Shown piece after piece: positions 4,246 to 63,600 of a stretch of DNA of 64,000 nt. Below the pieces are notes generated by a model that worked only from the letters and a program-made list of their open reading frames with translations, did not search any database and was not told the DNA's origin. Numbering within the stretch: position 1 is the first letter of the stretch; the number at the start of each line of letters is the position of its first letter. Source of the stretch: an uncultured Planctomycetia bacterium (GTDB lineage: Bacteria; Omnitrophota; Gorgyraeia; Gorgyraeales; Gorgyraeaceae); NCBI GenBank assembly GCA_964566255.1, contig CAZMID010000003.1, forward strand, positions 5,145 through 69,144, given 5' to 3'. The position numbers and the translations under genes are program-made.

Positions 4246-4389
4246 TGATACTTATTAAATCCTTCGCCTTTCTAGAATCAGATATATTATTAGAATAAAC
4301 TAGAAGTATAAAGACCAATCCTATAATAAGAAAGGTAAGAATTGCATACCTTTCAGATTTTGAAAAATATAACATAGAATATGCCTAGA

Positions 4390-29264: not shown

Positions 29265-30481
29265 TCTTCAAATACACTCTCCTGTACCTCTATAACCTCC
29301 ACAGGCATTCCGTCTCTGAGTTCCTGTGGAGTATCTGTCACTACCAATTCTCCTTCATAAAGGCCAGATTCTATGACAGTGTAATCAGTTGTCACATAGG
29401 CTACCTCGACAGGCTTGGCATGGATGGTGTTATTATTATCAACAGTAAAAATTTTATATCCGTCATCATCTTTATCTAAACTTAAGCTCGGTACAACCAC
29501 TGCATTCTCAAATTCAGCAACGGTTATCATGGCCCTTGCAAACATGCCTGGCAAAAGTAATGCATCTGGATTTTCTATGCCAACTCTAACAGTAAGAGTT
29601 CTGGATTTTCCTTCAATAACAGGAAAGACATTGTCTACAACTCCTTCAAAATCAAGATCTGAATAAGCATCTACAGTAACCTTTGTATCTTGTCCAAGCG
29701 CAATCTTATCTATATCCTTTTCAACTATACCGAGCTCTACAAAAACCTTCATGGTATCGTATAATGTCGCAATCTTATCGTGTGGAGTAACAAATTCTCC
29801 CTCTTCTACGTCTCTAGAACCTAAAACTCCGTCTCGTGGGGCATAAAGATCTGTCTTCTCAAGCTCTGATTCTGCTGACTTAAGCTCTACTTCAGCTGAG
29901 ACAACCTGGAGCTCAGCTGACTTAGCCTCTAATTCTACCTCCTCCAGCTTCGTCTTTATAATGCCGCCTATCTTATAAAGATTTTGATGGATTTCTAATT
30001 TCTTTTTTGTTGCAAGGGCCTGCATTTTAGTAGATTCTAATTTACTCTTAGAATACTCCACCTTTAATTCAGCATCCTTTCTGTTTAAAACAGCTATTAA
30101 ATCTCTTTTATAAATAACATCCCCTTCTCTATAATTAATAGTCTCTACCACGCCATTCACTTCAAATTTAAGCTCTATTTCCAAGGCACCTTTGACTGTA
30201 CCCATTACAGGTAGATCATCCTTAAAATCTGTCAATGTTATTCTATAGCACCTGACCGGTATAGCGCTTGAAGCTTGTGATTGAGGCATAGCCTCCATAC
30301 CTTTAGCGGTATCTTTTTCTTTAATTTGTTTTTGGGCTTTTTTAGATTTGGTAAATATATTCGGTATGGATATTTTTTTTAAAGGGGTTTTATTTAATAA
30401 TGTCATACCCCAGAGAACTGCAAATCCTACCACCCATAAAGCTATAAACGCTATTAATATTATCTTTGTCTTTTTTATCAT
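29261..30481 (-). CDS. RND efflux periplasmic adaptor (membrane fusion protein, HlyD family)
   Basis: 406 aa. It has an N-terminal transmembrane anchor, a coiled-coil hairpin, and lipoyl and beta-barrel domains. It overlaps the RND gene by 4 bp. Confidence 0.85.
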   Translation of the reverse strand: MIKKTKIILIAFIALWVVGFAVLWGMTLLNKTPLKKISIPNIFTKSKKAQKQIKEKDTAKGMEAMPQSQASSAIPVRCYRITLTDFKDDLPVMGTVKGALEIELKFEVNGVVETINYREGDVIYKRDLIAVLNRKDAELKVEYSKSKLESTKMQALATKKKLEIHQNLYKIGGIIKTKLEEVELEAKSAELQVVSAEVELKSAESELEKTDLYAPRDGVLGSRDVEEGEFVTPHDKIATLYDTMKVFVELGIVEKDIDKIALGQDTKVTVDAYSDLDFEGVVDNVFPVIEGKSRTLTVRVGIENPDALLLPGMFARAMITVAEFENAVVVPSLSLDKDDDGYKIFTVDNNNTIHAKPVEVAYVTTDYTVIESGLYEGELVVTDTPQELRDGMPVEVIEVQESVFEE

Positions 30482-32307
30482 TTTATTTTGCCTACATTAG
30501 CCAGCATAAAATTTTCACTATCCAAAAACAGTGCATATCCTGTTGCCTTGTTTAATTTTGCCATGGACTGGTAGAGGCTACCCATTAATTCAATATAGTA
30601 TGATTTTTCATCTGTCAAATTCATGTGCGCCTGCATAAGCTCTGAAAATGGAATCTCATTCAATTCTGAACGGGCCTTTGCAATCTTAAGCTCTTCTTCC
30701 CTGTATTTAATCTTATTCAAATTAGCATTTGCCTGAATAAATCCTTTCCTGTAATCCAGGTGGGCCTCTTTCACCTCTCTTAAAACATTATCTTCTGCCT
30801 CGCGTAATTCCTCCCTGGCCTTATCCAATGCTATCTGGCTGGATTTCTTCTCGGAAAAACTCTGCAGATTATCAAGAAAGTTAAATTCCACTGACTGGCT
30901 AGTAGATTCTGTCCTGGACGTTTGACCATGTTTTTCACTTGTCTCATCTTCTGTATAAACAGTAGAAAGTGTATTACCGCCTAAAGGCTTTGAAAACTTA
31001 ATTCCAAAATACCAGTCATTTTCCATAGTCAAATCTTCAGATTCATACGCCCCACCGGATTTGCCATAATTTCCTGTAAGATCCACCTTTAGCTGATCTT
31101 TAGAAAGTGCTATCTTACGGTTATACTCATTAAATTCCACCATATGTTTTTTTGCCTTAAGATCTGGTCTGTATCTAGAAGCTAAATCCATGCATTCTTC
31201 TAGTCCCACATCTATATATACCGGCTTTAAATCCGTCATATCTACATCTACTAAAGTATCTATTTCTTTTGAGTCTTCTACACCCATTGCCTGCTGTAAA
31301 ACCAACCTTGCCAAAGATAGATCATTTTCACTTGAGGCAACCTGATAATTAATCTGTTTCATCTGGGACTTTACCTGCAAAAATTCAGCCTTTGTACTTA
31401 ATTCAAGTTCAAACCTCTTCTTTGCAGTATCAAAAACAGTTCCTGTCTCTTTTAAAAGAGACCTTTGCAGCCCCACATTAATTGAACTGGCCATATATGA
31501 ATAAAAAGACATCTCCACCTCGAGCCTCAAATCCTGCAAAACCTTATCATAGTTCTCTGTCGAGGCCTTCATGTTGCTAACTGCCTGTTCAACCGCATAT
31601 TTAAGTCGCCATCCATAATAGAGCGGATATTCAAATTTGAGTTTATATTCCTTGTCTGTAAAATCCTGTATATTCGCAGTAGTTTTTCCTGTTGTCTCCA
31701 GATAACTAAAACTTGCTGCTGGGAAAAGGGCCCTCCTTGCCTCTCTTATTTTAAGCCTTGAGAGCGCTATCTCTTCCTTGGCTATCCTTGTAACTGTGCT
31801 ATTTTCCAATGCAAGGTCTACTGCATCGTTCAAACCTAGATCTCTAACATCCAGACTTTTCGGACTGGGTAACTTTGCGTGAAAAGTATCTTTAGTATCA
31901 AATATTATCGGGATATCTATCCAACGATCCTTTTCTCCAAGTGCTTCTGGAAAAGGTTGATACCTTTGATACATCCAGACTGCCTTTAAAGAGGCCTCGT
32001 CCAGTTCTGTAGAGTCCGAAGACTCAGAAACATAGGCATCCTTCAGCTCTCCCCAAGGAGAAAGTAAAATCTTTAACCTTAACTTCCCCTTTGAGTCATA
32101 TACTACAGACCTATCAGGCATAGGAGAAATAGAATCATATATCTCATTTGATAAATCTACGATATATTGTATTAGAGATTCGTTTTGGATGGCTGGTTGA
32201 TAAGAAAATACTTCTGTGGGCGATATAAATACAATTATTACAGCAAAAGATAATAATATAGCGCTTTTAATGTGCATAACCTCTCCTGTGAAGGAGAAGT
32301 ATATCAC
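30478..32307 (-). CDS. outer-membrane efflux protein (TolC family) with an N-terminal TonB-C-like extension
   Basis: 609 aa. The TolC-like repeats cover about aa 170-609. The first ~150 aa after the signal resemble a TonB C-terminal fold (…GKLRLKILLSPWGELKDAYVSESSDSTELDEASLKAVWMYQRYQPFP). Confidence 0.75.
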   Translation of the reverse strand: MIYFSFTGEVMHIKSAILLSFAVIIVFISPTEVFSYQPAIQNESLIQYIVDLSNEIYDSISPMPDRSVVYDSKGKLRLKILLSPWGELKDAYVSESSDSTELDEASLKAVWMYQRYQPFPEALGEKDRWIDIPIIFDTKDTFHAKLPSPKSLDVRDLGLNDAVDLALENSTVTRIAKEEIALSRLKIREARRALFPAASFSYLETTGKTTANIQDFTDKEYKLKFEYPLYYGWRLKYAVEQAVSNMKASTENYDKVLQDLRLEVEMSFYSYMASSINVGLQRSLLKETGTVFDTAKKRFELELSTKAEFLQVKSQMKQINYQVASSENDLSLARLVLQQAMGVEDSKEIDTLVDVDMTDLKPVYIDVGLEECMDLASRYRPDLKAKKHMVEFNEYNRKIALSKDQLKVDLTGNYGKSGGAYESEDLTMENDWYFGIKFSKPLGGNTLSTVYTEDETSEKHGQTSRTESTSQSVEFNFLDNLQSFSEKKSSQIALDKAREELREAEDNVLREVKEAHLDYRKGFIQANANLNKIKYREEELKIAKARSELNEIPFSELMQAHMNLTDEKSYYIELMGSLYQSMAKLNKATGYALFLDSENFMLANVGKIK

Positions 32308-43878: not shown

Positions 43879-45227
43879 TAATTGCTCCTTTCGGATTTAT
43901 ATATTTTTTGTTGGCGCGACAATTCTCTTTCTTTAACCGCTTGGGTTTCGGCCGCTACTTGCTCTGGGGTCTTCTCACCCAGTATGATCGACTGGATCCC
44001 CCTGGTGTAAGTCTCAATTACCATTAAAAACTCTGATACATCCCAGGCATTAGGATGAGTGGCGTAATCCATACCCGAGATAAACTCCTGATTGATCTTA
44101 GACATATTTATGGCAGACTCTCTGTTTGCCGGCAGGTTCTTTGTTTCTCTTAATAGAAATGTCTGCTGCACGTCATCTGTAAGCCACTTTAGAAATTCAA
44201 CTGTCTCTTGAATTTTTTTAGAATTATTATTCACTATAAAACTAGATCCCGCACCTCCCCAGATCATCATTGAAAACTTATTTGAAGCCCTTGGAGGAAG
44301 CATTGTACCATAATTTAGTCCTGGGTTCATGCTTTTATATACATTAACACACCATGAACCATTAAATGCAAAGGCTGCTCTATTATTTGCAAAAAGCTGC
44401 TCTGCAGTCTTATTCACCATGGTTACAACACCAGTTGCAAGGACTTTTTCATCTCGCATCTGGCGGAATAGATCAAAGACCTTTATCCAATCAGGATCTG
44501 TATAAGGCACCTTTCCACGTATAGTATTTAATACCTTCTTTTCACCCATTATATTAAACGCATAGTTAGAGACCATGCAATCTATCATCCATATTTCTCC
44601 CCATCCACTTACTAGGCCTTGAATACCTTTTGCTTGAAGAAGTCTATTTAATTCTAAGAATTCATCCCATGTAACAGGAACCTCAGAAGAATCCCAGCCT
44701 ACTTTTTCCAATAAATCTTTATTGTACAACATCTGGATATTCGTAACATCTATAGGAACTCCATATATACCCGGTTCTACTTCAAAGGAATTCTTTCTTT
44801 TAAACACATTTACAGCCAAGGCCTTTTCAAATATCTTTTTCTTCCAGCTGGAATTATTTTCTTTCATGCTAGATGTAAGATTATAGATATGCCCTGCTTT
44901 TATAAAACTTGCAAAGTCTTTTTTTTCTCCGAGGATTCCAAATACATCAGGTAGGGTGTTTGTTTGTGCAGCTGCGCGTATCTTCTGGGTATATGCATTA
45001 GAAGGTGCATAAAGTTCAAAATTTATTTTTATTCCTGATTCAATTTCATATCTTTTGGCGAGTTCTAATAAAGCGTCTTCTCTATCACTCATCCAGTGCC
45101 AAATAGTTACAACGTCATCTTGAGAAGTTTTCTGAGAGGAACAGCTTACTAAAAAAACACTTAAAAAAACGGTAAACGAACAAATGATAAAAAAAAGATG
45201 AAATTTCCTATAACGATCATTCATCAC
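43878..45227 (-). CDS. extracellular solute-binding protein (family 1, sugar ABC)
   Basis: 449 aa. It has a signal peptide with a VSC lipobox and a bilobal sugar-binding-protein pattern. The AAGGAG ribosome-binding site is upstream. The start is GTG or the ATG 3 nt downstream. Confidence 0.8.
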   Translation of the reverse strand: MMNDRYRKFHLFFIICSFTVFLSVFLVSCSSQKTSQDDVVTIWHWMSDREDALLELAKRYEIESGIKINFELYAPSNAYTQKIRAAAQTNTLPDVFGILGEKKDFASFIKAGHIYNLTSSMKENNSSWKKKIFEKALAVNVFKRKNSFEVEPGIYGVPIDVTNIQMLYNKDLLEKVGWDSSEVPVTWDEFLELNRLLQAKGIQGLVSGWGEIWMIDCMVSNYAFNIMGEKKVLNTIRGKVPYTDPDWIKVFDLFRQMRDEKVLATGVVTMVNKTAEQLFANNRAAFAFNGSWCVNVYKSMNPGLNYGTMLPPRASNKFSMMIWGGAGSSFIVNNNSKKIQETVEFLKWLTDDVQQTFLLRETKNLPANRESAINMSKINQEFISGMDYATHPNAWDVSEFLMVIETYTRGIQSIILGEKTPEQVAAETQAVKERELSRQQKIYKSERSN

Positions 45228-45263
45228 TTTACTACTCCTTATTCTGAAAACTTTGTATTTTTA

Positions 45264-45620
45264 TCAATTGGCCACAAAAAGTCTATTTACGTCCTTACTA
45301 AACTCTACTGCAATGCCATCTTCTTCTACCCTTATTACAGTAGCATCACCTATAAGCCGAGAAAAAGGAAAGTCTCTTGCATCTTCTCTTGGTACTGATA
45401 GAGATATATGAATGGTATCTTCTGGCTTAATACTTTTTATCTTTATATCTACTATATATGCCCCATTATAACTCACATCACCTGTAGCACCAGAAAACAC
45501 CTCTTCCTTCCCGCTTGAGGAAGTACGCTTGAGTTTCGCAGGAATAGACAGGTCTAATCGTTTGAATTTCCTCTTTTCTGTAAAATCGCCTGTCTTCATT
45601 TTCACCTCCTTTTGTGGCAT
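45264..45620 (-). CDS. PilZ-domain (c-di-GMP-binding) protein; the true start is probably the second Met at 45599
   Basis: The RxxxR motif is EKRKFKRLDLS. The D/NxSxxG motif is GDVSYNGAYI. A perfect AAGGAGGTG ribosome-binding site lies 4 nt before the second ATG (MKTGDF…), so the probable product is 111 aa. Confidence 0.6.
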   Translation of the reverse strand: MPQKEVKMKTGDFTEKRKFKRLDLSIPAKLKRTSSSGKEEVFSGATGDVSYNGAYIVDIKIKSIKPEDTIHISLSVPREDARDFPFSRLIGDATVIRVEEDGIAVEFSKDVNRLFVAN

Positions 45621-45631
45621 TGTCCTTTTTG

Positions 45632-45660
45632 ATTATACCACAACATCTTAGATAATTAAA
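45632..45660 (-). promoter_or_regulatory. Candidate promoter for the PilZ gene, read on the minus strand. An extended -10 TGGTATAAT sits 17 nt downstream of a TTTAAT -35.
   Basis: Read directly in the 57-bp gap between the giant-gene stop and the PilZ start. Confidence 0.4.
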
Positions 45661-45677
45661 GGTTTTTTTTAAGTTTT

Positions 45678-48600
45678 TTATAAACTAGCTCCTATTGTCC
45701 TAGGTTGTCTCTTAAATGTCATATTACCTGTGTCACTATAAATAGGCACATTCATCCTTTCTTCATGCAAGTCTTCAGCATCATATTCAGTTTCTGTCAA
45801 AAGATCTATTGGCAATTTAATTGTAATCTTTACATCACTATCACTACTATTAAAATTTGGCTTTCCAATGAAATCTTTCTTAAGTGCTGTAGCTCTTGAA
45901 GATAGTATTGATATAAAAGAAGATATTGCATTATTGGGTCTATTTAATCCTATTATAGAAGTAGTGATTGTAATAATGTCTTCCTTGCGTTCCGTACTTA
46001 TAGATAAAATTCCTTTTTCATTGACAATATTAGCAATGCCTTTTAAAAACATACAAATATCTTCAGATATATCAATATTATCTACATCTATTAAACCCAC
46101 TTTTTCATCTAGTGTTGTTTTTACTGTAAGCTGCGGATATAAGCTTTTTAAACCCTGCAATTCCAGTAGAAGGTCTCGATTTATACCGCTTTCTTTTTTC
46201 ATGAGTTCTCCTATATCTAGACCTTTCGCCATAGGTCTAATAGTCTTAGAAGGACCATATAATCTCTCTAAAACACCCTGAATATGTGCGGCAAAACTAT
46301 TTCCATTATTAAAGCTAGGATCTGTGTCATCTAAAACTTCTGAGAACGCTTCTGCCAACATCTGATCACGTAAATCATCTTCAAATCCATCATTATCTAC
46401 ATAGTCATCTTGACCATTATTTGAATCTTCAATCTTATACAGACTATCATCTACCATTCTATCAAAAAGAAAACTATCATTCCCATACTCAATATCTTTA
46501 AGTCCTATTGTCAGCAACAAATCTAGCTTAAATCCTCCTGCATTAATTATGGATGTTACGACTAAACGTTCTGCCTCAAAAAGAATCTGTGCTGGCGTAC
46601 CTTGGATATGGCTTTCGGTATATTTTGATAGTCTTAATCCAAGACTGTTAGATAGACGCTTTCTTTTGTTAGATGGTATATGATATTTGTACTTTTCTAT
46701 TAACTTTTCTATGACTGTCTTGTAATCCCTTGAGACGGCCAAGAATGTAAGAGATACATTGCCTGATTCAAGACATCTCTCTTGTATTAAACGAGCTATC
46801 TTTTTATGTAATTCATCATTACTGTTTAGCAATTTTCTTAAACCGACTATTTTATGTGGTCTGAATTTCGAATTATCCTCGGTCAAAAGTACTATCTTGG
46901 CATTGGGATTTCCATCTTGCCAATCTTTAAGACGCATTACAACCCAGGGAATGCCATTTTTTGTCCACAATACAACTCTTTCCCTTTTGAATATTTTGAC
47001 ATAATAGTGCTTTTTCTTAAAAGACTTGACATAACGTATGTAACCACTCTTTTTTAGAGGTTCACTGTATTCTATACGTATATTTCCTTTCGTAATCTTC
47101 TTGATTTCAGAAAATTCCGGCATAACCTCATTATAGGTAAACACTATTTTGCCTTCATCGTTGTAAATCCGATTGTATTCATACATCTTACAATAGCCTC
47201 TTCTTTTAATATAATCATCAAGCTTGGCGTATTTAAGAAGATAAAATTTTTCTTCAATATTTCCATCTTTTTCTTCGTTTACCTTTACAAACCATGCCAC
47301 TGTCTCTGTTCCTGGTGAAAAATCCTCATCTACTATATAATCGTCGTTAAAAAAGAATATCGCTCTCCTGTTATCTCCAACTTTCAACCCTCTAACTCTG
47401 ATTATACTCCTATTAGTAAGCTTTTTAAATTTTGAACTAATTTTTCCGCGAGCCTGGGTAGAAAAACTACCTATAAATTCATCTTTATCCTCAAGTTCTA
47501 CATCTACAGTTACAAACTCATCCTTTTTGGCTTCTGGATTTAATATTGAAGAAATACCAAAGGCCCCTGTCACATAGTTATCTTTGCCCTTGCGCCACAA
47601 TATTAAATTATCCTTTTTAAAGGAAGACACATATGCTTTTATATAGAAAAAATTGCCACCTTCATCTGTGGTGCCTCCTATTACTATATAAGTATCAGTT
47701 AATTCTATTTTTCTGTTCTTATGTGGAAATGTCTCATGTAGATCTCCTGCTTCATTAAAAATTTCTTCATATACTTTCTTTCCTCTTCCATCTATATCTG
47801 AAACAAATCTTATTACATCTCGCACATTCTTAGTCTTTCCTTCTCCAATTTTAATCCTTTGTATTAAAATACGCGTTTTTTCGCCAGGAGTACGAACTAT
47901 CCAACTAGTATCTCCATTTAACGAAAATTTCATCTTACGGCCTCCTGGTATTTTTCGACCCTCAACAAGTACCAAACCATGCTCCTCTAATAAGCTATCT
48001 AAAAATTCGTAAAAATCATTATTATTTATAGAACCTTCCCATTTATCCAAAAACTTCCCTGTCCTATAATCTACAAAGGCAATATTGTCTTCCTCAACGA
48101 TCTTTTTTCTTTTCTCGATATCTTTTTGGTCGGGTTCATCTAAAAAGCTTCCTTGTGGAATATCTGAAATCTCTATATCTAGTTCTGAAGATAACGTTAA
48201 AAGCGCTTGTCTTGCCTCTTCTGCTACCTCCAAGTTAACTCCTTCCATAAGCTTCTTTAAATGAGGAATAAATCTTCTGTCTTTTAGCTCAGTTACTTTT
48301 TGAATCAATTTTTCCATGGCTTTAGTAATTAGCGGATTTAAGCTGTTTATTAGGAACTTAAATTCATTGATTCTAGCTATGTACTTCTCTATTTCATCAG
48401 TTCCAGAAACATCTGGTTTTCTAATTACTGTTTTGCCTACAAATGCTGTCTGCGGTAATGCTGAACTATTAAACTCTTCTGAAATATTACTAGCTCCAAA
48501 TATAAAATAGCTTCTACTTTCTACCTCATTACGGATGTGTTTTGGTATTGAGTCCAATATTTCTTTTTCTCTTTTTTCCTTCCTTGCCTTATTTAGTGCT

Positions 48601-51600
48601 ATAGCCCAATGTACAATTGCCTTATTAAGATTTTTTTCATCAATACCGCTTTTCGTATAATAAATACTACCAAGTTTATAATATGCATCTACAGCATTAG
48701 ATTTTGATTTTATAGCCTCTTCTAGTGCTCCAATTGCCTTAGAGAAACTCTTTAACTCTTTGCAATCTATTGCATAATATGCACAGCCAAGATTATACCA
48801 AGCTTCTCCATATTTTTTATTGAGATTGGTTACTCGTTCAAGAATCCTAGCTGCCTCTTCAAATCTACATTTCTCTAAATAGACTCTTCCTATATTATTA
48901 AGTAACATCGGCATATACCCGTTCTTACTAGATTCATAATAATATCCTGCAACTCTTTCCTGCGTAATCTCAAAAACTTTCTCTTTATCTATTCCAGCTA
49001 GGTTCAAAAGCATATAAAATAGCTGAGCATTGGCAGCTAATAAAAGGTCTTTTTCTACTTTTTGCTTTTTAGTTTCATCGGATAGGCCCACACTTTGTAA
49101 TAACTCAAATATATCTTCATCCTTATCTATCAATGCATTTACCAAATGCCTTATAACAGGTTTTGGCTGGCCATTAGATAAATAATCATTTTCTTGTATT
49201 GATAACCAAAGATCATTAGGAAACTTTCTTAATAGATCATAATCACTTGCTCCTGAACTTTTTACTAAACTATAAAAATCTATATCTTTATCTTTGAATA
49301 ACTCTTCTACAATTAGCTCTGCCTTACCCTCAGAACAACCTAGATATTTTCTGAAAAAATCTTTCATGTATTCCTTCTGTTGATCTTCAGATTTATAAAC
49401 TACAGATTGATGGCTGAATGGATTTATTTTATATATTATTGAACTACAAGAAATAGATAGTAACAATAGAAAACTAATCATCATAGAAAAGATAGGATTT
49501 AAACCACCAATCCCTGCATATATAACATCAGGGAGATTATTTATAGGACTGGCTGCCTGAAACCACTGAAGGATAAATTGTATAGCTTCAGGAGATTTAA
49601 AACCTATAATTAAACCTACTATTATTAGTGGAATAATGGAACTTCTTAGTATCACTGAATTAGAAATAGTGGATTGCTTGAGAGATTTAGACCTTGATGT
49701 ATCAGCTTTATACGGCCTCTCAGGCGCTCCCATTAATTTTCTTAATTTCAAAAGTGCTTTTTCTTTAATTTGTCCTATCTTGTCTACTTCAAGCTCAAGG
49801 TCTAAGGCAATATCCTCCAAAGGCCTCTCTTGGATAATCGAATAGATAAGAATCTCCCTTTCTAATGGTGATAACTGCAATAACGCTGACTCTAATTTTT
49901 CCTCTCTATCTATCTTATCCAATAACTGGTCTTCCAGTTCTAATGAATCTGGATCAGTAATAAAGTTTTCAAGGCTCTCTGAATCTGAGTCAGATTCACG
50001 ATATTTAAAATTGCTTAAATAGACTGGATGTTCCTGACTCAATAATCCTATTACATATTCTCTAACTGTCTGAGGCCTAACTCCCATATATTCAGCTAAT
50101 CTTTCGATGTCTTTTTCAAATATTTCTGCCACACTATATATTTTTAAACTATTCATAGCCCTCTTTAGCTTCTTTATCTTACCCTGCATATGCGGTGGGA
50201 GCGGCATTGGTTTTTTAAGGCGGATATACTCTAAACATGCTGTTCTAATAAAATGTGGGGTATATGAGCTAAACCTCCCATATTGACTATAACGCAATCT
50301 GGTCTTTTGGGCTGCATCATATAAGGCAACTACCCCTGCATTTACCATATCTTTGAAGTCATGTTTATAATTTAAATAGGGACTACCATACCATTTTATA
50401 TATTGCTTAGCTATAATATTCGCTATATATAAATGACTTTCTATAAGTATGCGATTTGCTTCTTTTCCTAAATTCTCTGCCCTTTCATCATCTGACTTGA
50501 GATTGGCGTTTAATATCAAAATAATAAGCGCTTCCTCTTCCTCGATGCTTAATTTATGGTTATCTTCGTAATGCCAAATCTCTCCTATACCTTTTTTCTT
50601 ATAATCCTCAAATATAACCTCTGCCTTATCTACCTGCTGTCTTGTCGGGCCATAATGAACCAATATATACCTTTCTGGATCTCTTGCCTCAAAAATTCCC
50701 TTAAAACCCCTCCTATTAACATCAGGGTATTCTTTTAATAAAGCCTGTATTGCTTCATACGAAAATCCGCGCAATAGGCCTTTCCTCACTAACTGTGATC
50801 TAAATCCCAATAAATTATAAAGCTTGTTAATCTCTTCTTCTAAGGATGTAGCTAAACTATCAAAATCAAAACTGTCTTCAAAATCTTCATAGTCATCATC
50901 TAGAAGCAGCCTAGATTGGGTCTCAGTCAAGATATTATTTCTTGCCATCCTTTTAATTTTAGGATTACGTTCCTTTTCTTTCCAGGTAAATAAAAGATTA
51001 ACAAAATCATCAATAAAGCGTTCTGACGTAAAACCATCTAGGTTATATAATGTCTTTTTCAGCCGTTCATTTAAACATGCCTTAAGGGACTGCTTAATCC
51101 CTTTTGTTAAGACCTTTTTCCTCTTGGCCAATTTTGCCAATAACATAGTTTCGTACCTATAAGTAACATTTTTATTCCAAATGTTCGTAAAATCATCCTT
51201 CAGTGCCTGTAGGCTTTTTCTAGAATCTAGTATTATCCCTGAGGCCTCTTGCACTTTTAGATCATGATATATCGGCCTATACCCAAATTGACTTTCTGAA
51301 TCAAGAGTGCAAAGGACTGCTTTCTGGATCCAGTATTTTGTGTTTTTAGCAAATTGATCTAACTTCATTGAAAATCTAAAGCTTTTCAATTCTTCCAACT
51401 CTTCCAATAAAGCCTTTATTTCTTCTAATGTCATTGCGCTATCAATAGAATCCCTAAAAGAATCTATCTGTTCTCTAAACTCACTAACTTCTATCTCTTT
51501 TCTCATAAGTAAACCCTGATACGCTTCTGCTATTTCTTTTATTTTTTTATTTATTTCTACCTCATCCAGATTAGATTCAATAAATAAATGGAAGGTAATT

Positions 51601-54600
51601 ACTGGTGGCAATCCTTTTATTCTAGCTAATTTTAATAAGTCTTGTATCTTTTTCTCTATGCTATTCCCATTATATCTGATTAAATCACAGATTATATACT
51701 TTGGAAGGTTGTACTTAGTAGCTAAATCACTAATATTGTCGCTTAATGCTTCAAAATCTCCTATTTCAAAACCATCTTTTATAAGAACAGTGATCAGTGA
51801 AATAGGTAATTTATATGTAGCGCTAATCCTCTTTGAATTATATGAAATCTTTTTAAGGACTCTCTCAAAATCTGCATATTTCTTAATTACATGAATCAAA
51901 GTAGATCTTGAAACTCCGTATTTCTCCATAAGCTCCTTAAATGCAGTAAATGTGAATCCTTTGAGAAGAAGCATGTGTACATGATTTTCTATAAATGGTT
52001 TAACAGTCTCATCACCTTGTTTAAACTCCTCGATTGCCTTTTTAACCCCTGCACCAAACCCTTCTATATCAAAAAACTTCTCTACCTTATAAAGCGTGTA
52101 GTTCCCAGGATTCCTTAGAATCTTCCAGCTATTGGCACTTAACAGATAATTTTCCATGAAGTTCTTCTTTAAAAACTCTTCTCTTTCTCTTGTAATCTTC
52201 TTATTTGTCAATTTTCCAATTAAGTCTTTAGCTACTTTCTTCTCAATCCCAATATTAATTAAAGAATCTACTAAAAACTGTGAGTTTTCTAATCTCCTCT
52301 TTTTAGATAACGCATGCTTAGCCAGATACCTCTCCATATGATCGGTTTTACATGCCTTAAATATCAATGATTTTGTAGCGTTGTATTTCTCCTTCAAACC
52401 TAAATAAGACTCATAAGTTAAGCCTCTATAAAGCATCCAGCTATAGTACAACTCTGTAAATGCATTATCCTTAAATATCTTTCTTTCCTCTTTTAATCTA
52501 GATACGAATCTTGTCATGCCTTCCTCTCTCCAATGGCCAGAAACTATTTTCTTTACATCTGATCTAGTCAGAAATCTGTTTCTAGTAAAATTCTTTAGTG
52601 ACTCGAGGTGTAATTCTGAACTCTGGTAAAAATTAAATATACTATTAGTGATTTTCTTGGAGAAATCCATACTAAAACTATTTTCTAATAAAAGCTCTCT
52701 GAGTTCTTCCTTTAAAACGGCATTTGGTATAGGAGGCATTTCTATTAATGGTTTTATCAGTTGTTTCTTTTTTTCTTTTATTAATCGTGGTTTACTAATT
52801 CTACTATCTTCAGCTTCTATCTGGCGCTTGACTTTAATCTTCCCAGTATCTTTTGTAGAAACCTCTAAGCTAATAATCTTAGCATCTTTTAAGAATTTAA
52901 TAGTTTTAGGCAAGCCATTTTTAAATTCAACTTCCACCCACTCATTTGCATAGTTTGAAAATTTCGTCCAATAGATACCTATTTCTAGTTCACCTGCACC
53001 TCCCAACTGATGTAAAATAATATTATCCTTTAATTCTAAAAGTCTCTTTTGAGGGAATTTCTCAAATGAATCTATGATATTTCTTTTAGTATCCAGGATT
53101 AAACTTAAGTCTTTAGCTAGAAATATCTTTCCTTCCTTAATAAGTCTAGCCTTTACCACGATTCCATTAATGACATAAGCCTTTACGTCATCATGCTTCG
53201 GAAATTTACTAAAGTTAGCCCAATTCCTTCCTCCAAGATGTAGGTTCCCGTCTCCATCAAGGTGATGATGTTTTATTACTGCTTTCCTCAGGCCAGCCAA
53301 TCTTTCTTTTTTCATCCCTATAAAAGAATCTACTTCTTTCCTCTTATTTAAATCTACTAAGATAGAAAACTTTCTAATAATACCATCCTTTATAAACTTC
53401 ACTTCTCTTGGTAATCCTTTTCTAACTATAAATTCTACTTCTTCATTTTGATAGAGAGAAAATCTTGCCCAACGCTTGCCGCCAATATGTAATTCACCAC
53501 CATCACGCAGATAAAATCTTTTAATCGTTACATCCTCTAATTTGCTAAACTTAGACCTTCCGTAGCTATCGTAGAATGTTTCAATTAACTGACCGGTCTT
53601 ATTATTCCAAATTTGAGAAAATTCAACCACTAAGTCATCCTCTAAGAATTTAACCTTATCAACAAAGTCTCCCATCATAGTAACTTCAACTAAGGCATTT
53701 GCTCTTTTGCTAAATCTAGCCCGTTTCGTACCATCTATCCACAACCCCCCAGTTTTACCAAGTTGCATTCTTATAACTCTCTCTTTCTTAATCTTTATTA
53801 TTGGTCGCTGAAACAATGGAAGAACTGTTGCACTGTTATATATAGGTTCTATAACTTTTGAAAACATTTCACCTTTTTGTGAAAGAAAATCCCTAGCAGG
53901 GACATTTGAAAGATGTCTCCTCTTTTTTAACTTCACTGATTGGAATGTTTGTTTATTTGGTAGAATAAGTGGGACGGCCCCTCCGACAGGTTCAGATGAA
54001 GACAAGGTTTCATCTCTCTCGCGTCCCACCCACTTGACAATAAGTAAAGTAGTCAAAATTAAAGCAATAGTTATTCCCAATGGCCCCAAGAGAGGAGATG
54101 CAATAAGTACACCGGCCTTTCCAACAGCTGCAAATAAAGTACCTGGCAAAAAGATAGCAGCTAATATACTCGCAGCAATACTAAGCTTTCTGAAACTCCC
54201 TGTAGTTACTAAACTAAGCTTTTCTTTTTGCTGCTGGTTAGGCCTATCCTGGTCTTTATCTATTCTCTGGCCATGAAACTCTGAATCTCTCTTTATATCC
54301 TGGCTACCCTTAACATTCTCAGTTCCACTCCTGACAGCTTCAAGTTTTTCTTTGGCTTTTCCAAGGCGCACCGTGTAATAAAACCTCTTTCCCTCTTCAA
54401 AGACAATATTATCTACAGCCTTTTCTGCTCTCTTAAGAGCCTCCTCGGCTTTATTTAAATCAAGGTCTTCTGTTTTCTCAATATATTGAAGGGCCTTTTC
54501 TAAAATGCCAATCTGTCCATTAGTATATCCATTAGCAGCTGCGCGTAAAGATTCATAAGATTTCCTAAATCCTACGACCCTATCGTCATATTCCAAAAGG

Positions 54601-57600
54601 CCTCCTATAACATTTTCTTCAACAGCCATAGCTAATCTATGTGCCTCTCGCAGGATTTTCACATCTAAATTCTTGATATCTTTCAAAGCGATACTTGCTT
54701 TTTCAATGGCCTTCTTGGCCTTATTGATATACGTAGCCCTAAAAACAATCTGGTCTAATTCAGCAATCCTATCATGAACATATATTGAATCCTGTTCTGA
54801 GCGAGCACGAGCTATGTACCAAGATAGATCAAGTCCTCTCCTGACAGCATCCAACTGGCCATCATTAATATTGTCAAATTTGCAAAGCTTGTAGGTCTCT
54901 TTAACAATCTCTTCAAAGTATTTCCTTAGAGGTACTTTTTCTAGAAAAGATGCCTTGTCCAACTCTGTAGAATGTTTGACCACCACCCTATCTATGTAGT
55001 CCTCATAGTTAGACATTATTATCTTTACATATCTCTGAGTCTCTCGGAACGGAGGAATATTATTGCCATACTCTTCAATTCTATGAGGACCTGCATTATA
55101 TCCTCCTACTGCCAATCTAATGCTTTCGAATCTTTCTAACAACATTGCAAAGTAATGAGTCCCTCCTCTCGTATTCTTATATGGGACATAAACATCCCCA
55201 TCTGTCCAATTCACTCCTAAATCTTCTCTTATATCTTTCCATGTATCTGTAGAAGGATTATCCGGCGTTGACCTGATCTGCATAGCTCCTTTTGCATCTT
55301 TATGGCTAGTGGCCATAACCCTAACACTACCCTTAATATAACTTTCTTGAAGAATCATAAACCATGTAAATGCTGTAAATTTTTCAAGGCTGCCAAAATG
55401 TCTCTTCAATGTAGAATAAGTCCTCTCATCATCCCATGTATCCTCTACTCCTCTTCTTATTTCATTCTCAAAACTATAATCCTCTAGCCTTGTCCCTGAA
55501 TTAGCGCCATAAGCAACATTGCTAGCCACAAAACCTTCATTTGTAAAATGAGGTGATAGAGGTACAAATACCAAGAAGCCTACGAATAATACACTCATTA
55601 ACTTCTTCAGAGAAATCCTACTACCAATCCTTCTCCTATTCTCAGGCCTTATAGAAATAGAAAATAGAGAGCTATTCCCTTGCTTGAAGCTATTCCTTAT
55701 AAATATACTGCCTATTGCAAGTAAACCTAAAGCAATTAGTCCAGGTAGCCCAAAGTGTGTAAATATGATTGTAAGAATACCTATTGACAGAATTCCAGAA
55801 ACAGCAACCTTTTCAGTCTTCTCAGATTTTATAGCACTAGATATCTTATCTACTAAAGGAACATGATATCTTGCCATTATTTCTTCTATAGGGGTGTTTC
55901 TAGAAAGTGTTTTTTCTTCAAGTTCCTGCGGTGTTAAAGAGCCATGAAGCTCTACTTCTTTAACCTTTTCTATTTTGTTAAATTGAGCACGTTTATTTTC
56001 GCCTTGATCTAATGGGCTATACCAGGCCTTTGAACCTGAATGGACTGAGATTTGCTCTATATTCTTTAATGTAGCCTTGGACACTGGAAAATCAGATATA
56101 GGTATTTCAACCATACCATTTTCAGGTATAGTATATTTTTTAGGACTCCGACCAATATCAGCTGCACCCATTGCCTTATCTTTTAATAGCCTTACAAATA
56201 TATTTGTTCCAGATTGATTTCTTGGGAAGGTTATGCGTAAAGACTTTGCATCTGACAAATCAAATAGACCATCTACCCAGCAGGAATAAGCATCTCCACC
56301 AGGCCAACTTCCACTTATTCCCCAGGCAATCGCTTCTACATCTATCTTTAACTTAATTTCTTTTTTGGGTTTTGGTGCAGTCTTCTCTTCCTGAATCGGA
56401 AATTTAATTACCTTTCTGGTTTTTGGCTTTACAATATTTTCTGCTGCTTTTTCTGTAACTCTAATAAGTCCTGGGATTTCTCTGGCGCCTAATGAAAATG
56501 GATTAAATCCTAATTCTACTAATCCCATCCATGCTGTAGACGCAGTACTTAATACGCCTCCTGCAGCAAACCAGCCATGTCCAGTAGGAGCCCTTCTATT
56601 AGCATAAGGGTAAGCTATTTCTTCTCCGATCTGAACAGCCATTGTCTTCATATGGGCATACATTGTAACAGCGTCTTTTTCACATTCTTCCGCCCAATCT
56701 GGATGAGATTTTGAATAATAATCAGCTAAAATAGCACATGCCTCTATAGCACCTGCTGTCCACTCAACACTCTTTATACCATTATCTCCTCTATCAGTAA
56801 AATCAACTGCTATAATATTACCATTATCATCAAATATTCCAGCAAGCTCTTTTGATTCTTTCCATAATCTGTATGAGGTACCATCACCAAACCATTTATC
56901 TATTATATCTGCACCTAATACATCTATTGCCCAGGTCTGACAGTCTGTTGCAAAAATAGGATTAACTATCCATTCCCCCTTATCTTCATCATAGTGCATA
57001 CCTTGATTAAATACGCCTCTTTCAGAATCAAAACTTAGTTTAAGATATCCTGCTACATTATCCATTGCTTTCTTATAAGTAGTCTTTCCTGTAATTTCAT
57101 AAAGCATCCTGAATGCGGCATACCATGATAGATTATTCTCTGTTGAAATCTCATCATACATCCATTTATATCTAAATGGATTTTTACCAGGTTCTTGTGG
57201 AGACCATGTACCTTTAGGAGCCATACGTATACCACCATTTTCAGCTTGCAGGAAAATAGCTGCCCTTGCAGTCTCTTCTGCAAGTTGCATCTCTATAGCA
57301 TCTGGTAAATATTCTTTTCCATTCTCCTTAAAATAAATCTGTAATGGCCCTAAGACTCCTGCCCATGCATTCTCACCTGCTACTGGCTGCCACTGGCTCC
57401 ATTCAACTGTATTTCCTGCAAGAGGGTCTTTTAACTTCCAATGACCAAAGGCATTGATAATCTTAAACCTAAAACCCCTCTCGCCCTTCCAATAAGAAAT
57501 CTTACTTCTACCTTTATCACTATAAACAAATGGTGATTTTGATGCATGTAATTCACGAAGGTCTCCCAATGTGCCCCTCCACATAACATCAACCAATAAT

Positions 57601-60600
57601 TTTGCTGGTCTTAAGTCCCCTGTAAGGGCCTGGAATATTTGCGCAACACCTCCGTCATATATTACAAGTCCTTCTTTTAGAACCGTTCTTTCGTGTACAT
57701 TCTCAGATTCTTCCCAAATCGATTCCAGCCTATCTCCTGGTACCTGAAAGCTTAAGATAACCTTTGTATTATCTGCAACATTATTTTCAAGCCAGTTACC
57801 AATGCCTTTAATGGTTTTTTCTGATGCGATTGAAGTAGAAACTCCCATTAAAAACACTATAACTACAGAAGCAGTAAGCGAGGCGACCTCTCCGAAGGTA
57901 GGACTTGACAAGGTCAGACCATTTTTGCGCCCCGCCTGCTCGTTTCCTGAAAACGTTTTCTTTTTTGGTGAAACAAAAAGCACTTCAGTTGAATTTAAAT
58001 CTTCCCTCTCTAATTTTACAGAGTTAAATGTTGATCTATTTCTAATTACACGATTTAATATTGATTTTATTGGGGATATATATGCCTTTATTTCGCTTGG
58101 TTTCTTGTCATGTGCTATATCTTCAAGGTGAGCTTGTTCATGGGTTAGAAGTTTTTTCTGGAACCACTTAGGTATTAACTTCATTAAATCTTTATTTACA
58201 TAAAGTGTTCCATCTGGGGAAACATAGGATGGGTCTTTTGATGTAGAATCATCTTTACTAGATGCAAATTCTTCTATAAGACCAAAGTCTGGGCCTCGTA
58301 TTACACCTCTCTTAACAAAATAATGAATTATATTTACAAAAGCTATAAGACTGGTCTGTAATAAGTAGAATGTAACAGCGATAAGGCCTGGCAAAGATAA
58401 TAGTGCTATACCAATTGTAGCTACTATCGGTATATCTGAAGATGCACCATAGGCAATAAATGAAGGAGCAAAAAATGTTATTAAGCCTGCAAAAAATGAT
58501 GTTAAAGAACCTATTAAAGAAACAGAGGATTTTTCTTTACCTAACTTACCGACAACATTTTGATTTATTGTTTCTTTAATCTCTCCAGTATTCAAATCTT
58601 TTATTAAAAGAGGGCTGTAATCATCTGCATTAGAAAAATATACAAAATTAAGCTCATCAAGTTCAAACTCTCCTTTTGCTATATCTTGACATTCTTCCAA
58701 TATTTCAAGAAATCTTTCATAGTCTTCTGGTTCTTTATGTATATATCCTATAGAAATATGTCCTAGAAAGTTTCTTCTTGATGTGCTAGTATGCTTATTT
58801 ATAGCTTGATTTAAATCTAAAACTCTATTTAATTCTTCGGGCTCTGAAAATCTTACAAGTACGGAAATAGTCCTCTTTAACCCAATCTCACCTATTAAAA
58901 CTTTTATCTTCCCTGGGGTACCTATATCTTCAAAAGAATTTCTTAATTGTTCTAACCTTTCCTCATATTGTTCCCTGGTAACACCAGTTTTTGCACAATC
59001 ATATTTCTCACTTGGGTCTACATCGCATATTGTCATATGAAAAGTCTCGGGCCTAAGAAACTTAACACTATCCCCTAATCCTTTTCTCTTTAATTCATCT
59101 TGTAAATCAATTAATAGCCTAGACAACTTATTTTCTTGCCCTACAGGAGCAACACATGTAAAACCAGAGAAGGCCAGTAAATTTCCATGCTTATCAATTT
59201 TCTCTCCTCTACCGAAATGTGCTACACTATCAAAAGGTTTGCCCTTATATTTAGTAATAGTTCTGCCTTTCAATCTACTGTTATAAGTCTCGAATTTATT
59301 AATACCTCTTTCAACCCTGCCAAGTTCAAGTGCAACTTCCTTCACACTACGATCTTTTACCTTTAGGGTCTTAAATAAATTGCGCAGCATCTCTTTATTC
59401 TTCTCATCGATTTTTACTTTCAACATTACTCTGAATTCAATATCGCTCATTGCCTTATTTAGTGAATCACCGATATAATGTCCAAACCCCTTAGATAAAT
59501 CAATAGCTATAGTTAAATAACCGCTCTTTTTAAAATCCTCTACTATAGCCTTCAATCCTATTAACATAGACCTTAAAAACTCACTCTTCTCTTTTCCAAT
59601 CAAATTATCAATAGCATCTATATCGATTCCATTGGATATTAAATATTCATAGAATAACTTATATTTATCACCTTCATAATAAAGCTGCATGGCTGCTAAT
59701 CGTTTTGCGGCTTCCATGTCATCCGGATTGGCCATATATTCATCTTTTAAATATGCCAATTGTAATAGGTCTTCATACTCTCTCTCTGTAAAGTGGCCAT
59801 ATTCCTTAAGAAGCAATGCCTTTAATATAGTTATATAACTTTCATTATCCTGGTTATTAAACACTCCTCTTAAGAATACAGGGTGTATTTGCAATATCCT
59901 CCTTTTAATCTTTCCATTCTTTCTGTTTAAAATGAACCTTATAGCCATTATAGGATCGCCAGGCTCATCTGAAAAAACCACATCTTCCAGCATATCCTCA
60001 ACACCTATCTCTTTTGCCTTGCTATGCAAAAATTCTATCTCACTAGCAGTAGGTCTAATCTGGGTCTCAGCTATTCCAGCTATACAGTGAGAAACCTTAC
60101 TAAGGTAATTCTCTATCCTTCTATTTAACTCATTTGGATTATTTATGACTGGGATTAACTGTCCTTCTATGAAATCTCTGAAATAATAACCTGATTTAAA
60201 AGCAGGGTTTACTTCTTTTAAATATCCTGCTACTTGTCGTTGTTTATTGAGATTTATTAATAATTGATGGAGCTTGAGGTCCTGTAGGATAAGGTCATGC
60301 TCTTCTTGTCTTTCTTCTTGTTCTGTGCCAACTGTATTATTATGGCCTAATTCATGGAAAAGCCTTTCAGCAAGGATTATTCTTGTAGCTTCAGGATAAA
60401 TATTATTAGAAGCCAATAATGCTCTTATAAATTCCTCTCCTAAGATTATTTCAACCTGTTCTGTCTTAGAATTATAATATCTTACTGTATTTATTGGGAG
60501 CTTTGAATTTACTCTTATTACAATAGGAGGGGCTCTATTATCCTGACTGTTTAAAAGATCCTGTAAATATATGCTCAATTTAGTATCATTTTTTACTAGA

Positions 60601-63600
60601 TTTTCTATTAAATCAAGCGAATCATTTAAAAACGCTGCCAAATCTCCTGCCTCACTGCCTGTAGGAGTAAATCTCTGGCCTTTAGCCTGAGATAAATCAA
60701 GCCTTGCCTCTAATGAATCTACAAAATTACCTTCCAGATCAGAATACTTTACAGTATGGTCTGTGGGGGCAAAGGTTTTTACAGTGCTTTCTCTTAATAA
60801 TATAGTCTTAAGGTTATTCCATATAAACCCTTTTATGAGATTCTCCCAGAATAAATCTGCAATTATAAAGTAAGGTATTGCAACTAAGAAATGAATCAAT
60901 GCTTTTATAATTGAGATATTTAAGATAGGGAGACTGGTTACCAAGTCAACATAATCTACGAATGCCTTTTTCTTGCCTTCTAAGATCTTTAACCTTGCCT
61001 TAAAAGGCTTTAGGCCATATCTAAAGGAATCCTTCACAGAAAAACCATTATGCATGAATGGGCCTAGTATCAATGCAAATGGAAACACATAGAAGAAAAA
61101 CTGTGCTATTACACCCCAAGGATGCATAGGTGCAACTAAGAATATATTTAACAATAAAACTCCCCATTTAATAGATTCGCGGAATTTACCATATAGGGAG
61201 GCAAATGACTCAGTTGAATATTTAACATCCTTTGCACCTCCTATAAAAACTCCGCTATTACCGCCAAGAGCATCTATTGTCTTCTGAGCATCATTTGGAA
61301 CAAGCGACAAGAATGTTAATACCAGACTCCAAAACCTCATTAGGTATAGGCCATAACCCTTCAAAAATCCATATTCTTTTACAAGTTTTCTTACGCCTCC
61401 TGCTGCTATTGCCTGTGCAAATACATATTGCATAGATATAAATAATAAAGGAATAGACAGATATGCAAAAGGTGTAAAGGATACAAAGAATGCAAACGAG
61501 TAAATCATGAGGTTATAGCGTGGTATAATCACCTGATTTATATAATGGTCATCATTTGCAAGCAATGTGAATTTTTCTGCCCAGTGCATAATCTTACTTT
61601 TCAAAAGCTGCTGGAAGTGAATACTTATATTGTTATCAATTATTAATCCTCCGAACCTATTTACAAAAGATGGCATACCGCCTTGCGTCTTTTCCCTGCC
61701 TCTGCCCATTGTTATACCAGGCGCATAATCTGCCTTATAACCTGCCTTTAATATCTCTTGAGCAGTCATAGAGTCTTCTATCTTACTTGCAGGAACGCCA
61801 AAATCCCTCATTGCTGAGAGGCGCACAATGCCTGGACCATACATGGCTGGAGTGCCAGTCCTTGTCTCAGAAGGAATTAAGCGGGTATTGAATACATCTT
61901 CTGCTATCTCCTGGTCTTTCGCAGTAGGTGTCATACCTTGGTCAGCATCCCTGAGGTCAGTACCCACTATACCTAAATCAGGTCGTTGGGTGAAATCCCA
62001 TGCAACAAAAGGAAGCATGAATACATCAACTGGGAATATAGTATGTTCCCAGTCAGTATTGAATATGACTGCGTCTTTTTCGCCTGCTAAATGCCTCAAG
62101 GCATGTGTCCAGTTATCAACTTTATATCCCCAGCCAGAATGAAATTCAGAATCAGGAGGCACACCAAATCCAGCTATTGTTGCAAGGTGTCTTTCAGGGC
62201 AACCTTCTCCAGCTCCTTCCCCTTCTTTTACCCAGCTGCCTTCCTGCCACCCGAGTTCTTTTAAGTCTTCCATCATAACTGGGCCATTAACCTTACCAGC
62301 AAGCTCAACTTGATAACTAAACATACCCTGATAATATTCAAGTATCTCTTCATCTGTCGGATTACGGTCAAGTTCCATTACATGTTTTAAGAATATCCTG
62401 TATGCTACAAGGGATGATTCGTGAGCAGTCCTTACTGTCTTCTCCACGTTATCAACCCTAAACAATACCCACTGATGGATAATCTGGCGTGAAAGCATGA
62501 TTTCAATAAGGAGTTTTCTTAATACTTCGTCATCTTGTATGCTTGAGAAATCTCCTGCTCCAAAATCCGTATTGTATTTCTCTGACAACATTGCACGATC
62601 TGGATTTGTAATATGCTTAAGTTCTATCTCGAGGTTTTGCAAAATTGTATCTCTGGACATTGCATTAAAATCATATCGTGCAGACATAGGATTATCTCCA
62701 TCATGTCCCAAAGGTAAAATACCATATTCCAACATCCCTTCTAATGTATCTTCAAAACTCATGTAAGGGTCGCTAAACTTTTTAATAAAGGCCTTTTTAG
62801 CATCTCCAGTTAAATTACCTAATCCTGCAAGATAATCAAGGTATGATAACCAATCACCTCTATATGCCTCTTTAATTATCCTGAAAGGTGTTTTTATGTC
62901 TCCACCGCCTTTTCCTTCTGGATGAGGAGTATCATCATCCAAAGAGATCCTTGTAACCACAGCAAACTGCTTCCAGCTAGTCACCTTGGTTATTACCCTT
63001 AAAAGCTGACCTGGGTTTGTTCGTATAAATTCCTTTATATCTTGAAATTCTTCTTTGCTATAAAGATTGACCTTATTAAAGAATTCTACGATCTTCTTTT
63101 TTGCACGAGGGTTCTGGATATCTGCAGCATCAGATAATGCTTTCCCCTTACCTAATGCCTCCCTAAGTCCTTGTGCCTCCTCTTCAGTAATCATGCGGTA
63201 TTTTAACAGCGTTTCATTTATTAGGATCTCATGATATACGTCAGTCAAGTAAGGATCATTCTTTATCTTTTCAATATCACTCTGTTTTATCTGGTTATAT
63301 GAATTTATATCCTTCCAGTGACCTTGTTTTTCAAGCGCATGTATTACTGCTTCTGATAACAGATGCCACCAGCTGCGTAACGATACCATAGCATTTAAAA
63401 AGAGGATTATAGAACCAATACCAAGCCCTATTAAAGGCAAGACCCCCCATGAATATAATACACATAATACTGTCAATACCGCAAATGTCCCGACCCATAA
63501 TGTGGCAAGTATTTTAAAGAACCTTACCTTCTCGCTTATCCTTTCCTGTGCTTGCGGGTCAGTTCTACCAATATATTCCTTGCTTGCTTCATAGATATCT

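Follow-up and report, generated by a model that had tools for sequence, protein, structure and literature searches.

A divergent lytic transglycosylase domain in a giant Omnitrophota protein that also carries a sigma-70-family module

Lytic transglycosylases of family 1, among them Slt70 of E. coli, LtgA of Neisseria, Slt of P. aeruginosa and MltC, MltD and MltE, share a goose-lysozyme-like helical fold and the motifs ES, GLMQ, AYNAG and ETxxYV, and occur as free periplasmic enzymes or outer-membrane lipoproteins. Here we describe a domain of this family, the SLT domain, encoded in a 64,000-nucleotide stretch of contig CAZMID010000003.1, which at its full length we call the window. The domain shares GLMQ (as GAMQ), AYNAG (as GYNAGP) and ETxxYV with the known enzymes, has a candidate for ES, and finds its best sequence and structure matches in the PDB among them. 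It differs in forming an internal part of a chain that is at least 6060 amino acids (aa) long, with predicted membrane anchors on either side of the domain, in having a four-residue insertion behind the candidate Glu-Ser dipeptide in addition to further insertions, and in an N-terminal lobe (N-lobe) too divergent for profile alignment.

The closest described setting comes from the same phylum. SLT has been reported as a "less common domain" of giant multi-transmembrane Omnitrophota proteins, with wall degradation as the proposed function, and localisation based on transmembrane (TM) segments has been described as problematic in these proteins (West-Roberts et al. 2023, bioRxiv 10.1101/2023.11.21.568195). 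An SLT domain within a giant protein, as described in an earlier note on this DNA, was thus already on record; the present module is a new example and not a new kind, and the domain itself is ordinary enzymology. The unusual element is the co-occurrence of SLT and a sigma-70-family module in one chain, and the word "sigma" is absent from both preprints on giant Omnitrophota proteins (the one cited above and bioRxiv 10.64898/2026.06.07.730766). Like the "Archaeovorin" proteins, the chain is giant, has many TM segments, mixes cytoplasm- and envelope-type modules and poses the same difficulty of localisation. It is far shorter than the "Archaeovorin" set (at least 6060 versus >30,000 aa), unless a large part extends beyond the window, and its in-window part does not show, by Pfam, their domain set of glycosyltransferases, methyltransferases, glycosyl hydrolases, peptidases and NUDIX, often with SecA-DEAD and HEAT: no SecA-DEAD, HEAT, glycosyltransferase or peptidase domain was detected in that part.

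An SLT-type domain is likewise coupled to a large envelope structure in VirB1, EtgA, FlgJ/SltF and Borrelia BB0259 (NF047373), enzymes believed to make a gap locally in the wall of their own cell; in the present protein the coupling is covalent, within one polypeptide. SLT is a module of a long chain also in the phage tape-measure protein P0207 (PhageMin_Tail and SLT) and in P0127 (1419 aa, N-terminal TM segment and SLT), but the similarity to proteins of this type is only 36-43% identity and confined to the SLT domain. The protein described below adds a well-documented case, with residue-level coordinates and a candidate catalytic residue, to the poorly characterised giant membrane proteins of Omnitrophota. 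As aa 2775-2975 are a fragment small enough for expression, it also offers a way to ask whether giant proteins degrade walls, so far proposed from lists of domains.

Identity of the SLT domain and its candidate catalytic residue

The earlier note had placed an SLT domain with three hallmark motifs at 55011-55418, that is aa 2815-2950 of the giant protein, and Pfam, profile searches and AlphaFold/PDB matches agree on such a domain at this position (Table 1). The Pfam search that the note had proposed was positive: PF01464 matched a 180-aa fragment with the domain at 35.6 bits (E 7.4e-9) and a 3200-aa piece at 30.0 bits, above the gathering score of 21.3 bits. A custom profile built from 119 homologues, with the query excluded, scored 95 bits (E 3.5e-31) over aa 2847-2964, and this and the Pfam score place the match far beyond chance. 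When 5.8 billion proteins were searched through a word index, the domain retrieved 183 matches at E<=1e-3, and PF01464 was found in all 120 of those listed.

The conservation extends to single residues. In an alignment of 24 sequences that include the query (A1), 19 columns are invariant and the query bears the family residue in every one of them (S2852, A2856, G2858, Q2861, P2893, G2900, Y2903, Y2921-P2925, P2936, P2937, E2940-Q2942, Y2944 and V2945). The conserved Ser2852 (55305-55307) stands just upstream of GAMQ, which heads the string GAMQIRSTP (aa 2858-2866) and has Ala for the Leu of GLMQ, its G, M and Q columns being invariant or near-invariant. The second motif lies in AVGGYNAGPHRI (aa 2917-2928), where YNAGP (within G2920-P2925) is invariant both in A1 and in a second alignment, A2. 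The C-terminal motif PPFRETQRYV is nearly identical to the subfamily consensus, and in IPPFRETQRYV (aa 2935-2945) the residues E2940, T2941 and Y2944 of ETxxYV are invariant. Relative to the family, the domain has four insertions, including one of four residues after the candidate Glu-Ser, one behind GAMQ and one (NWTDG) ahead of the third helix; the pattern "P.TW..I" of the insertion after GAMQ is common to the giant protein, P0127 and P0145.

The predicted fold is that of the family. Both AlphaFold models, model 1 of aa 2775-2970 (predicted local distance difference test, pLDDT, 71.8; predicted template modelling score 0.67) and model 2 of aa 2740-3300 (pLDDT 71.3), are lysozyme-like and mainly helical with a small beta-hairpin, and the pLDDT of the C-terminal lobe is 86-95 in model 1 and up to 90-97 across the models. 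The top 47 Foldseek matches of model 1 in the PDB were all GH23, covering Slt of P. aeruginosa, LtgA, MltD, MltC, Slt70, Cj0843, MltE, MltF and one GH23 chitinase, and model 2 superposes on LtgA with 4.2 Å over 172 columns at 27% identity; for the two models together, the best matches reached E 2e-4 and probability 1.00. We conclude that aa 2825-2952 form a genuine but divergent family-1 (GH23/SLT) lytic transglycosylase domain.

The catalytic Glu of family-1 enzymes is found in the last helix turn just before the beta-hairpin. In both models, this is the place of Glu2839-Ser2840, which end the helix of aa 2825-2842 ahead of the hairpin; they belong to ILQESYIKG (aa 2836-2844), in which YIKG would be the four-residue insertion, and the Glu codon GAA is exactly at 55344-55346. 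The Glu-Ser dipeptide is invariant in all 119 homologous SLT domains, and several methods pair it with Glu2839-Ser2840. Phmmer aligned ILQES with IRQES of LtgA, and BLASTP set QES on QES with a four-residue gap in three of five pairs (P0127, P0183 and P0192, not P0207 or P0245). In a register test with a position-specific scoring matrix (PSSM) over 28 columns that end in Glu-Ser, Glu2839 scored -11.6 versus -27.1 for the ungapped register, a gain of 15 bits, the ungapped value being close to the protein-wide mean of -29.5 (standard deviation 8.3); with the test limited to the final 10 or 14 columns, Glu2839 was the best register within ~15 residues. The hydrophobic pattern FMILQES resembles the AVIxAES of the family and puts Glu-Ser exactly one helical turn upstream of the ungapped position, and the other residues of the catalytic site (S2852, Q2861, Y2921, N2922, E2940 and Y2944) are retained. 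These alignments and models suggest that Glu2839 is probably the catalytic residue with the insertion YIKG behind it, an assignment that requires the four-residue insertion and on which the aligners disagree. The earlier note had expected the Glu at 55344-55346 to be conserved in homologues; this stood in so far as the family column is invariant and Glu2839 scores best on it, but the comparison covers paralogous SLT domains only. As the profile matches start behind Glu-Ser, at aa 2847-2848, the N-lobe with the candidate residue is by sequence the weakly conserved part of the domain.

The sigma module and the topology of the chain

The same reading frame encodes a sigma-70-family module with regions 2, 3 and 4 in order. 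TIGR02937 matched it at 56.9 bits (cut-off 42.9) and RpoD_Cterm at E 1.3e-16, and the PDB match to SigA (7l7b) spans regions 2-4 in aa 4468-4708 (E 1.2e-6); Pfam Sigma70_r4 alone gave 22.8 bits, just under its cut-off of 24.1. That a sigma-like module shares the chain of SLT, as the earlier note had stated, is thus confirmed by the single frame, the above-cut-off TIGR02937 match and SigA.

The SLT domain lies between hydrophobic segments. Upstream, cluster E is probably a helical hairpin, and segment F combines a positively charged n-region, RRRIGSRISLKK, with a 15-residue hydrophobic core, LMSVLFVGFLVFVPL, followed by SPHFTNEGFVASNVAYGA; seven Lys/Arg residues fall within ~20 residues ahead of the core and none in the 15 behind it. 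With this n/h/c pattern of a signal peptide and the charge bias, the SLT domain would be expected to be exported, and it is likely periplasmic. Behind the domain follow a helical bundle (aa 2978-3178), for which a structure search of the model found no specific structural relative, a disordered linker, and cluster G. The latter has two minima (aa 3228-3246 and 3257-3275) both on the Kyte-Doolittle scale and on a Hessa-type scale, and AlphaFold places helices at aa 3223-3245 and 3260-3287. As no segment of aa 2778-3222 or 3288-4735 reaches even a relaxed hydropathy threshold for a TM helix, the SLT and sigma modules are separated by a single hydrophobic cluster, G. Positive flanks precede the first helix of cluster G (G1) and the first of cluster H (H1) and follow the second of cluster H (H2), which suggests that those ends are cytoplasmic.

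The earlier note had reasoned that with SLT outside and sigma inside, the intervening cluster needs an odd number of membrane crossings. The parity logic is correct, but its premise of an odd helix number did not survive the topology check, in which Kyte-Doolittle, the Hessa-type scale and AlphaFold all gave two helices. Three helices in cluster G were considered and rejected, as 56 residues are too few and as both scales show two minima and AlphaFold two helices. A division of the chain between periplasm and cytoplasm is accordingly not demonstrated, the only intervening cluster having two helices, and the topology predictions for the protein are internally inconsistent. With the sigma module in the chain of SLT, the protein is a stringent test case for the reliability of TM-based localisation in such proteins.

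Table 1. Features of the giant gene in the window; aa numbers count from the first TTG of the reading frame
Feature	Window positions	Strand	Basis
Giant open reading frame, 6060 codons from first TTG	45678..63860	minus	
TM cluster E (aa 2685-2723), two hydrophobic segments linked by THFGLPG	55692..55808	minus	hydropathy
Segment F (aa 2751-2770), signal-peptide-like start-transfer anchor	55551..55610	minus	hydropathy; AlphaFold helix aa 2751-2765
SLT / family-1 lytic transglycosylase domain (aa 2825-2952)	55005..55388	minus	Pfam, profile and homologue searches, AlphaFold
Glu2839-Ser2840, candidate catalytic Glu-Ser	55341..55346	minus	phmmer, BLASTP, PSSM, AlphaFold; some alignments dissent
Pfam-matched SLT core (aa 2848-2933)	55062-55319	minus	PF01464
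GAMQ (aa 2858-2861), corresponding to GLMQ	55278..55289	minus	alignments, profile
GYNAGP (aa 2919-2925), corresponding to AYNAG	55086..55106	minus	alignments, profile
PPFRETQRYV (aa 2936-2945), C-terminal motif with conserved Tyr2944	55026..55055	minus	alignments, profile
All-helical bundle after SLT (aa 2978-3178)	54327..54929	minus	AlphaFold, confident
TM cluster G (aa 3223-3287), two predicted helices	54000..54194	minus	Kyte-Doolittle, Hessa-type scale, AlphaFold
Sigma-70-family module, regions 2-4 (aa 4468-4708)	49737..50459	minus	NCBIfam, PDB match
TM cluster H (aa 4736-4812), two helices right behind sigma module	49425..49655	minus	hydropathy

Host envelope, proposed role and alternative readings

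Judged by its leucyl-tRNA synthetase (5849-8296), the host is a member of Omnitrophota, in line with the "Omnitrophota-like" of the earlier note: a 92-kb contig encodes a protein identical to it (100%), and those of its relatives that carry a name, at 72-77% identity, are Candidatus Omnitrophota with one exception. The window encodes a TolC-like outer-membrane efflux protein with a TonB C-terminal domain, HlyD, two AcrB and a SurA-like protein, which together indicate an outer membrane, and an L,D-transpeptidase with YkuD and LysM, which indicates a peptidoglycan of its own. From these genes the host looks like a diderm with its own peptidoglycan, and complete peptidoglycan synthesis has been reported for Omnitrophota genomes (bioRxiv 10.64898/2026.06.07.730766).

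The reading that we prefer, at somewhat better than even chances, is that the SLT domain is a periplasmic lytic transglycosylase tethered to the membrane, which makes local cuts in the cell's own sacculus around the giant envelope protein. The domain would sit in a loop of ~450 aa that is opened by segment F and closed by the helix pair of cluster G, with the helical bundle of ~200 aa following it. The Sec machinery would move the loop into the periplasm while both of its ends stay tethered to the inner membrane, and the domain would then cleave the beta-1,4 bond between N-acetylmuramic acid (MurNAc) and N-acetylglucosamine (GlcNAc) of the cell's own peptidoglycan by a single-Glu mechanism, with Glu2839 as acid/base and 1,6-anhydroMurNAc as the product. 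Such cleavage would create local openings in the sacculus, or remodel it, around a very large multi-pass protein, as is done for flagella, pili and type III/IV secretion systems by transglycosylases dedicated to them. A weak partial match to NF047373, a Borrelia flagellar-assembly transglycosylase (26.9 bits, model cut-off 234), shows that there are relatives which are bound to the membrane and dedicated to assembly. Catalytic competence, periplasmic location and the own wall as substrate are the parts of this reading that we infer.

Several observations weigh against it. The N-lobe score is negative even at the best register (-11.6), and Pfam, the custom hidden Markov model (HMM) and hmmalign, all beginning at aa 2847-2848, leave the Glu-Ser helix unaligned, as did hmmalign when the N-lobe was forced glocally with full and trimmed HMMs. 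Ungapped MAFFT places Lys2843-Gly2844 beneath the invariant Glu-Ser, and activity might suffer from the four-residue insertion beside the catalytic dipeptide. The positive flank QKEKLSLVTTGSFRK ahead of cluster G suggests a cytoplasmic loop end, contradicting segment F, and with two helices in cluster G the sigma module comes to lie on the side of SLT, so that at least one of the two localisations is wrong. Within the window, there are no secretion genes (type II included) and no pilus or flagellar genes for a space-making enzyme to serve, and the searched collections gave no orthologue that would indicate selection on the SLT module.

Some of these points would also be expected of a degenerate module that has kept the fold and the sugar groove, has lost or altered catalysis, and serves as a peptidoglycan-binding anchor to the sacculus, a reading that we consider distinctly doubtful. 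It accords with the N-lobe being the least conserved part and the start of every profile alignment behind Glu-Ser, with the Lys-Gly of the ungapped register where the family has Glu-Ser in 119 of 119, with the four insertions, one of them beside Glu-Ser, and with a pLDDT of only 58-65 near the Glu-Ser helix in model 1; however, the helix reaches 81-88 in model 2, Glu-Ser fits the hydrophobic pattern of the family one turn upstream and is picked by phmmer, BLASTP and PSSM, and the remaining catalytic-site residues are all in place. The idea that the domain is a predatory weapon, attacking the wall of a prey or host cell once this part of the protein has been released by proteolysis or exposed at the surface, as proposed for the "Archaeovorin" proteins, we regard as unlikely, though it has the Omnitrophota origin on its side, and West-Roberts et al. 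(2023), who report SLT in giant Omnitrophota proteins, propose degradation of prey walls. The c-region behind segment F (VAS-N, AYG-A) could further be a signal-peptidase site that frees the N-terminus of the module. As encoded, however, the domain is bracketed by membrane segments on both sides, next to genes for an outer membrane, and could not reach another cell; for these reasons, action on another cell's wall, which the earlier note had raised, is not favoured. Pfam detects no peptidase domain across the 6060 aa, and the window has no adhesion or secretion genes. SLT enzymes cut beta-1,4 MurNAc-GlcNAc bonds, which are absent from archaeal pseudomurein and proteinaceous sheaths, so neither pseudomurein nor protein sheaths could be their target.

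In another reading, the topology is reversed or mis-predicted, with SLT in the cytoplasm together with a functional sigma module and in a role unrelated to the sacculus, or the reading frame is translated or processed as several proteins, in which case the same-chain argument would become moot. A cytoplasmic or separately translated SLT module is the least likely reading, and we give it very little credence. The two helices of cluster G, which put SLT and sigma on the same side, and the positive flanks ahead of G1 and H1, which suggest cytoplasmic ends, would fit it, and West-Roberts et al. (2023) note implausible localisations and unreliable TM predictions in giant proteins. Segment F, on the other hand, is a strong N-in/C-out signal. 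To our knowledge, the cytoplasm offers no peptidoglycan as substrate. Separate proteins are further opposed by a frame uninterrupted over 18 kb and by Met2755, which has no convincing Shine-Dalgarno sequence ahead of it; an internal start before segment F was dropped for the latter reason.

A further reading would be a single chain of >6000 aa whose periplasmic wall-cutting module and membrane-tethered sigma module link wall events to transcription, the events being the cell's own remodelling or contact with another cell and the sigma module being released, for example, by regulated proteolysis. Such coupling would be a signalling architecture without described precedent; we think it highly improbable, as it needs an odd number of crossings in cluster G, contrary to the present predictions.

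The giant gene, its relatives and its surroundings

The frame of the giant gene runs without a stop from its first candidate start, the TTG at 63860, through the window end at 64000, and the gene thus probably continues beyond the window with its true N-terminus outside; 6060 aa is a minimum length. The frame is unbroken for 18 kb at a guanine-plus-cytosine (G+C) content of 32-40%, opposite the SLT region the other strand has open reading frames of 55-61 aa only, and an Rfam search of 45000-64000 matched no family. Across all 6060 aa, Pfam reports only SLT, 2H phosphoesterase, TPR and Sigma70_r4; peptidase domains are absent from these results, NCBIfam gave no match in aa 1-2680, and the module that precedes the SLT loop (aa 2011-2680, 55821-57830) has no Pfam, NCBIfam or PDB sequence match. 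Hydropathy shows ~8 hydrophobic clusters in all.

Orthologues with this SLT module were sought in four collections. The GTDB genomes gave only an SLT domain of Gastranaerophilales at 43% identity, and JGI metagenome contigs gave none; aa 1-4727 searched against 5.8 billion proteins found only P0388 and P0389, through other modules, and aa 2600-3300 against 1.84 billion representatives found none. P0388 (5423 aa, Endomicrobiaceae) matches aa 31-943 and P0389 matches aa 1095-1232. A further protein, P0139 (3128 aa), matches aa 2156-2702, with the shared module partly duplicated (55% and 43% identity over aa 2468-2702); it has no Pfam SLT match, and none of the three has the YNAG motif. As other giant proteins share only single modules with it, the giant protein appears to be a mosaic, which fits the published account that the great majority of long proteins in Omnitrophota are unique in sequence (bioRxiv 10.64898/2026.06.07.730766).

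The G+C content of the gene is 36-40% in the blocks 54000-57999 and 61000-63999 and 32-35% in its remainder, a pattern consistent with a mosaic origin of its modules. Recent acquisition of the SLT segment was considered and set aside: 54000-57999 (36-39%) differs only mildly from its flanks (32-35%), and this block, far longer than the domain, gives no diagnostic signal. In two independent ENA metagenome assemblies (ERZ23499057 and ERZ23499079), the last 1333 aa of the protein and the genes downstream of it are found at 99.9% identity. The contigs of both end exactly at window position 49680, just past the sigma module and ahead of TM cluster H, a point that may mark a strain-variable or repeat boundary within the giant gene.

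Smaller observations concern other parts of the protein. A borderline 2H-phosphoesterase match (21.9 bits, cut-off 21) falls on aa 1555-1612 (59025-59198), and the two HExxH motifs, HELGH at aa 1169 and HEQAH at aa 1907, might be marks of metalloprotease-like modules. By eye, aa ~3340-3720 (52700-53840) appear to hold four repeats of ~95 aa with the pattern "G.L.IGG..WA.FS", although a self-BLAST of the giant protein at E<1e-4 found no internal repeats, this pattern included.

The other genes of the window are of chromosomal housekeeping type by their similarities, with nothing phage-like around the giant gene. Among the other open reading frames of at least 150 aa, 34 of 36 are on the minus strand, and the two exceptions overlap a minus-strand gene. 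Besides the envelope genes above, they encode sugar ATP-binding-cassette and major-facilitator transport, a GH2-like protein, a ROK regulator, YchF, PurH, a Mur-ligase-family protein, MnmE, GTP cyclohydrolase I, AccA, ComEC and a hybrid histidine kinase. An open reading frame of 118 aa (45264-45620) lies immediately downstream of the giant gene; the ENA contigs call a 111-aa product with a weak PilZ match there. Two of the envelope genes are unusual fusions: the TolC-like protein (30478-32307) has its TonB C-terminal domain at the N-terminus, and an AcrB-family transporter (25611-29264) ends in a DeoR-type helix-turn-helix (aa 1154-1197).

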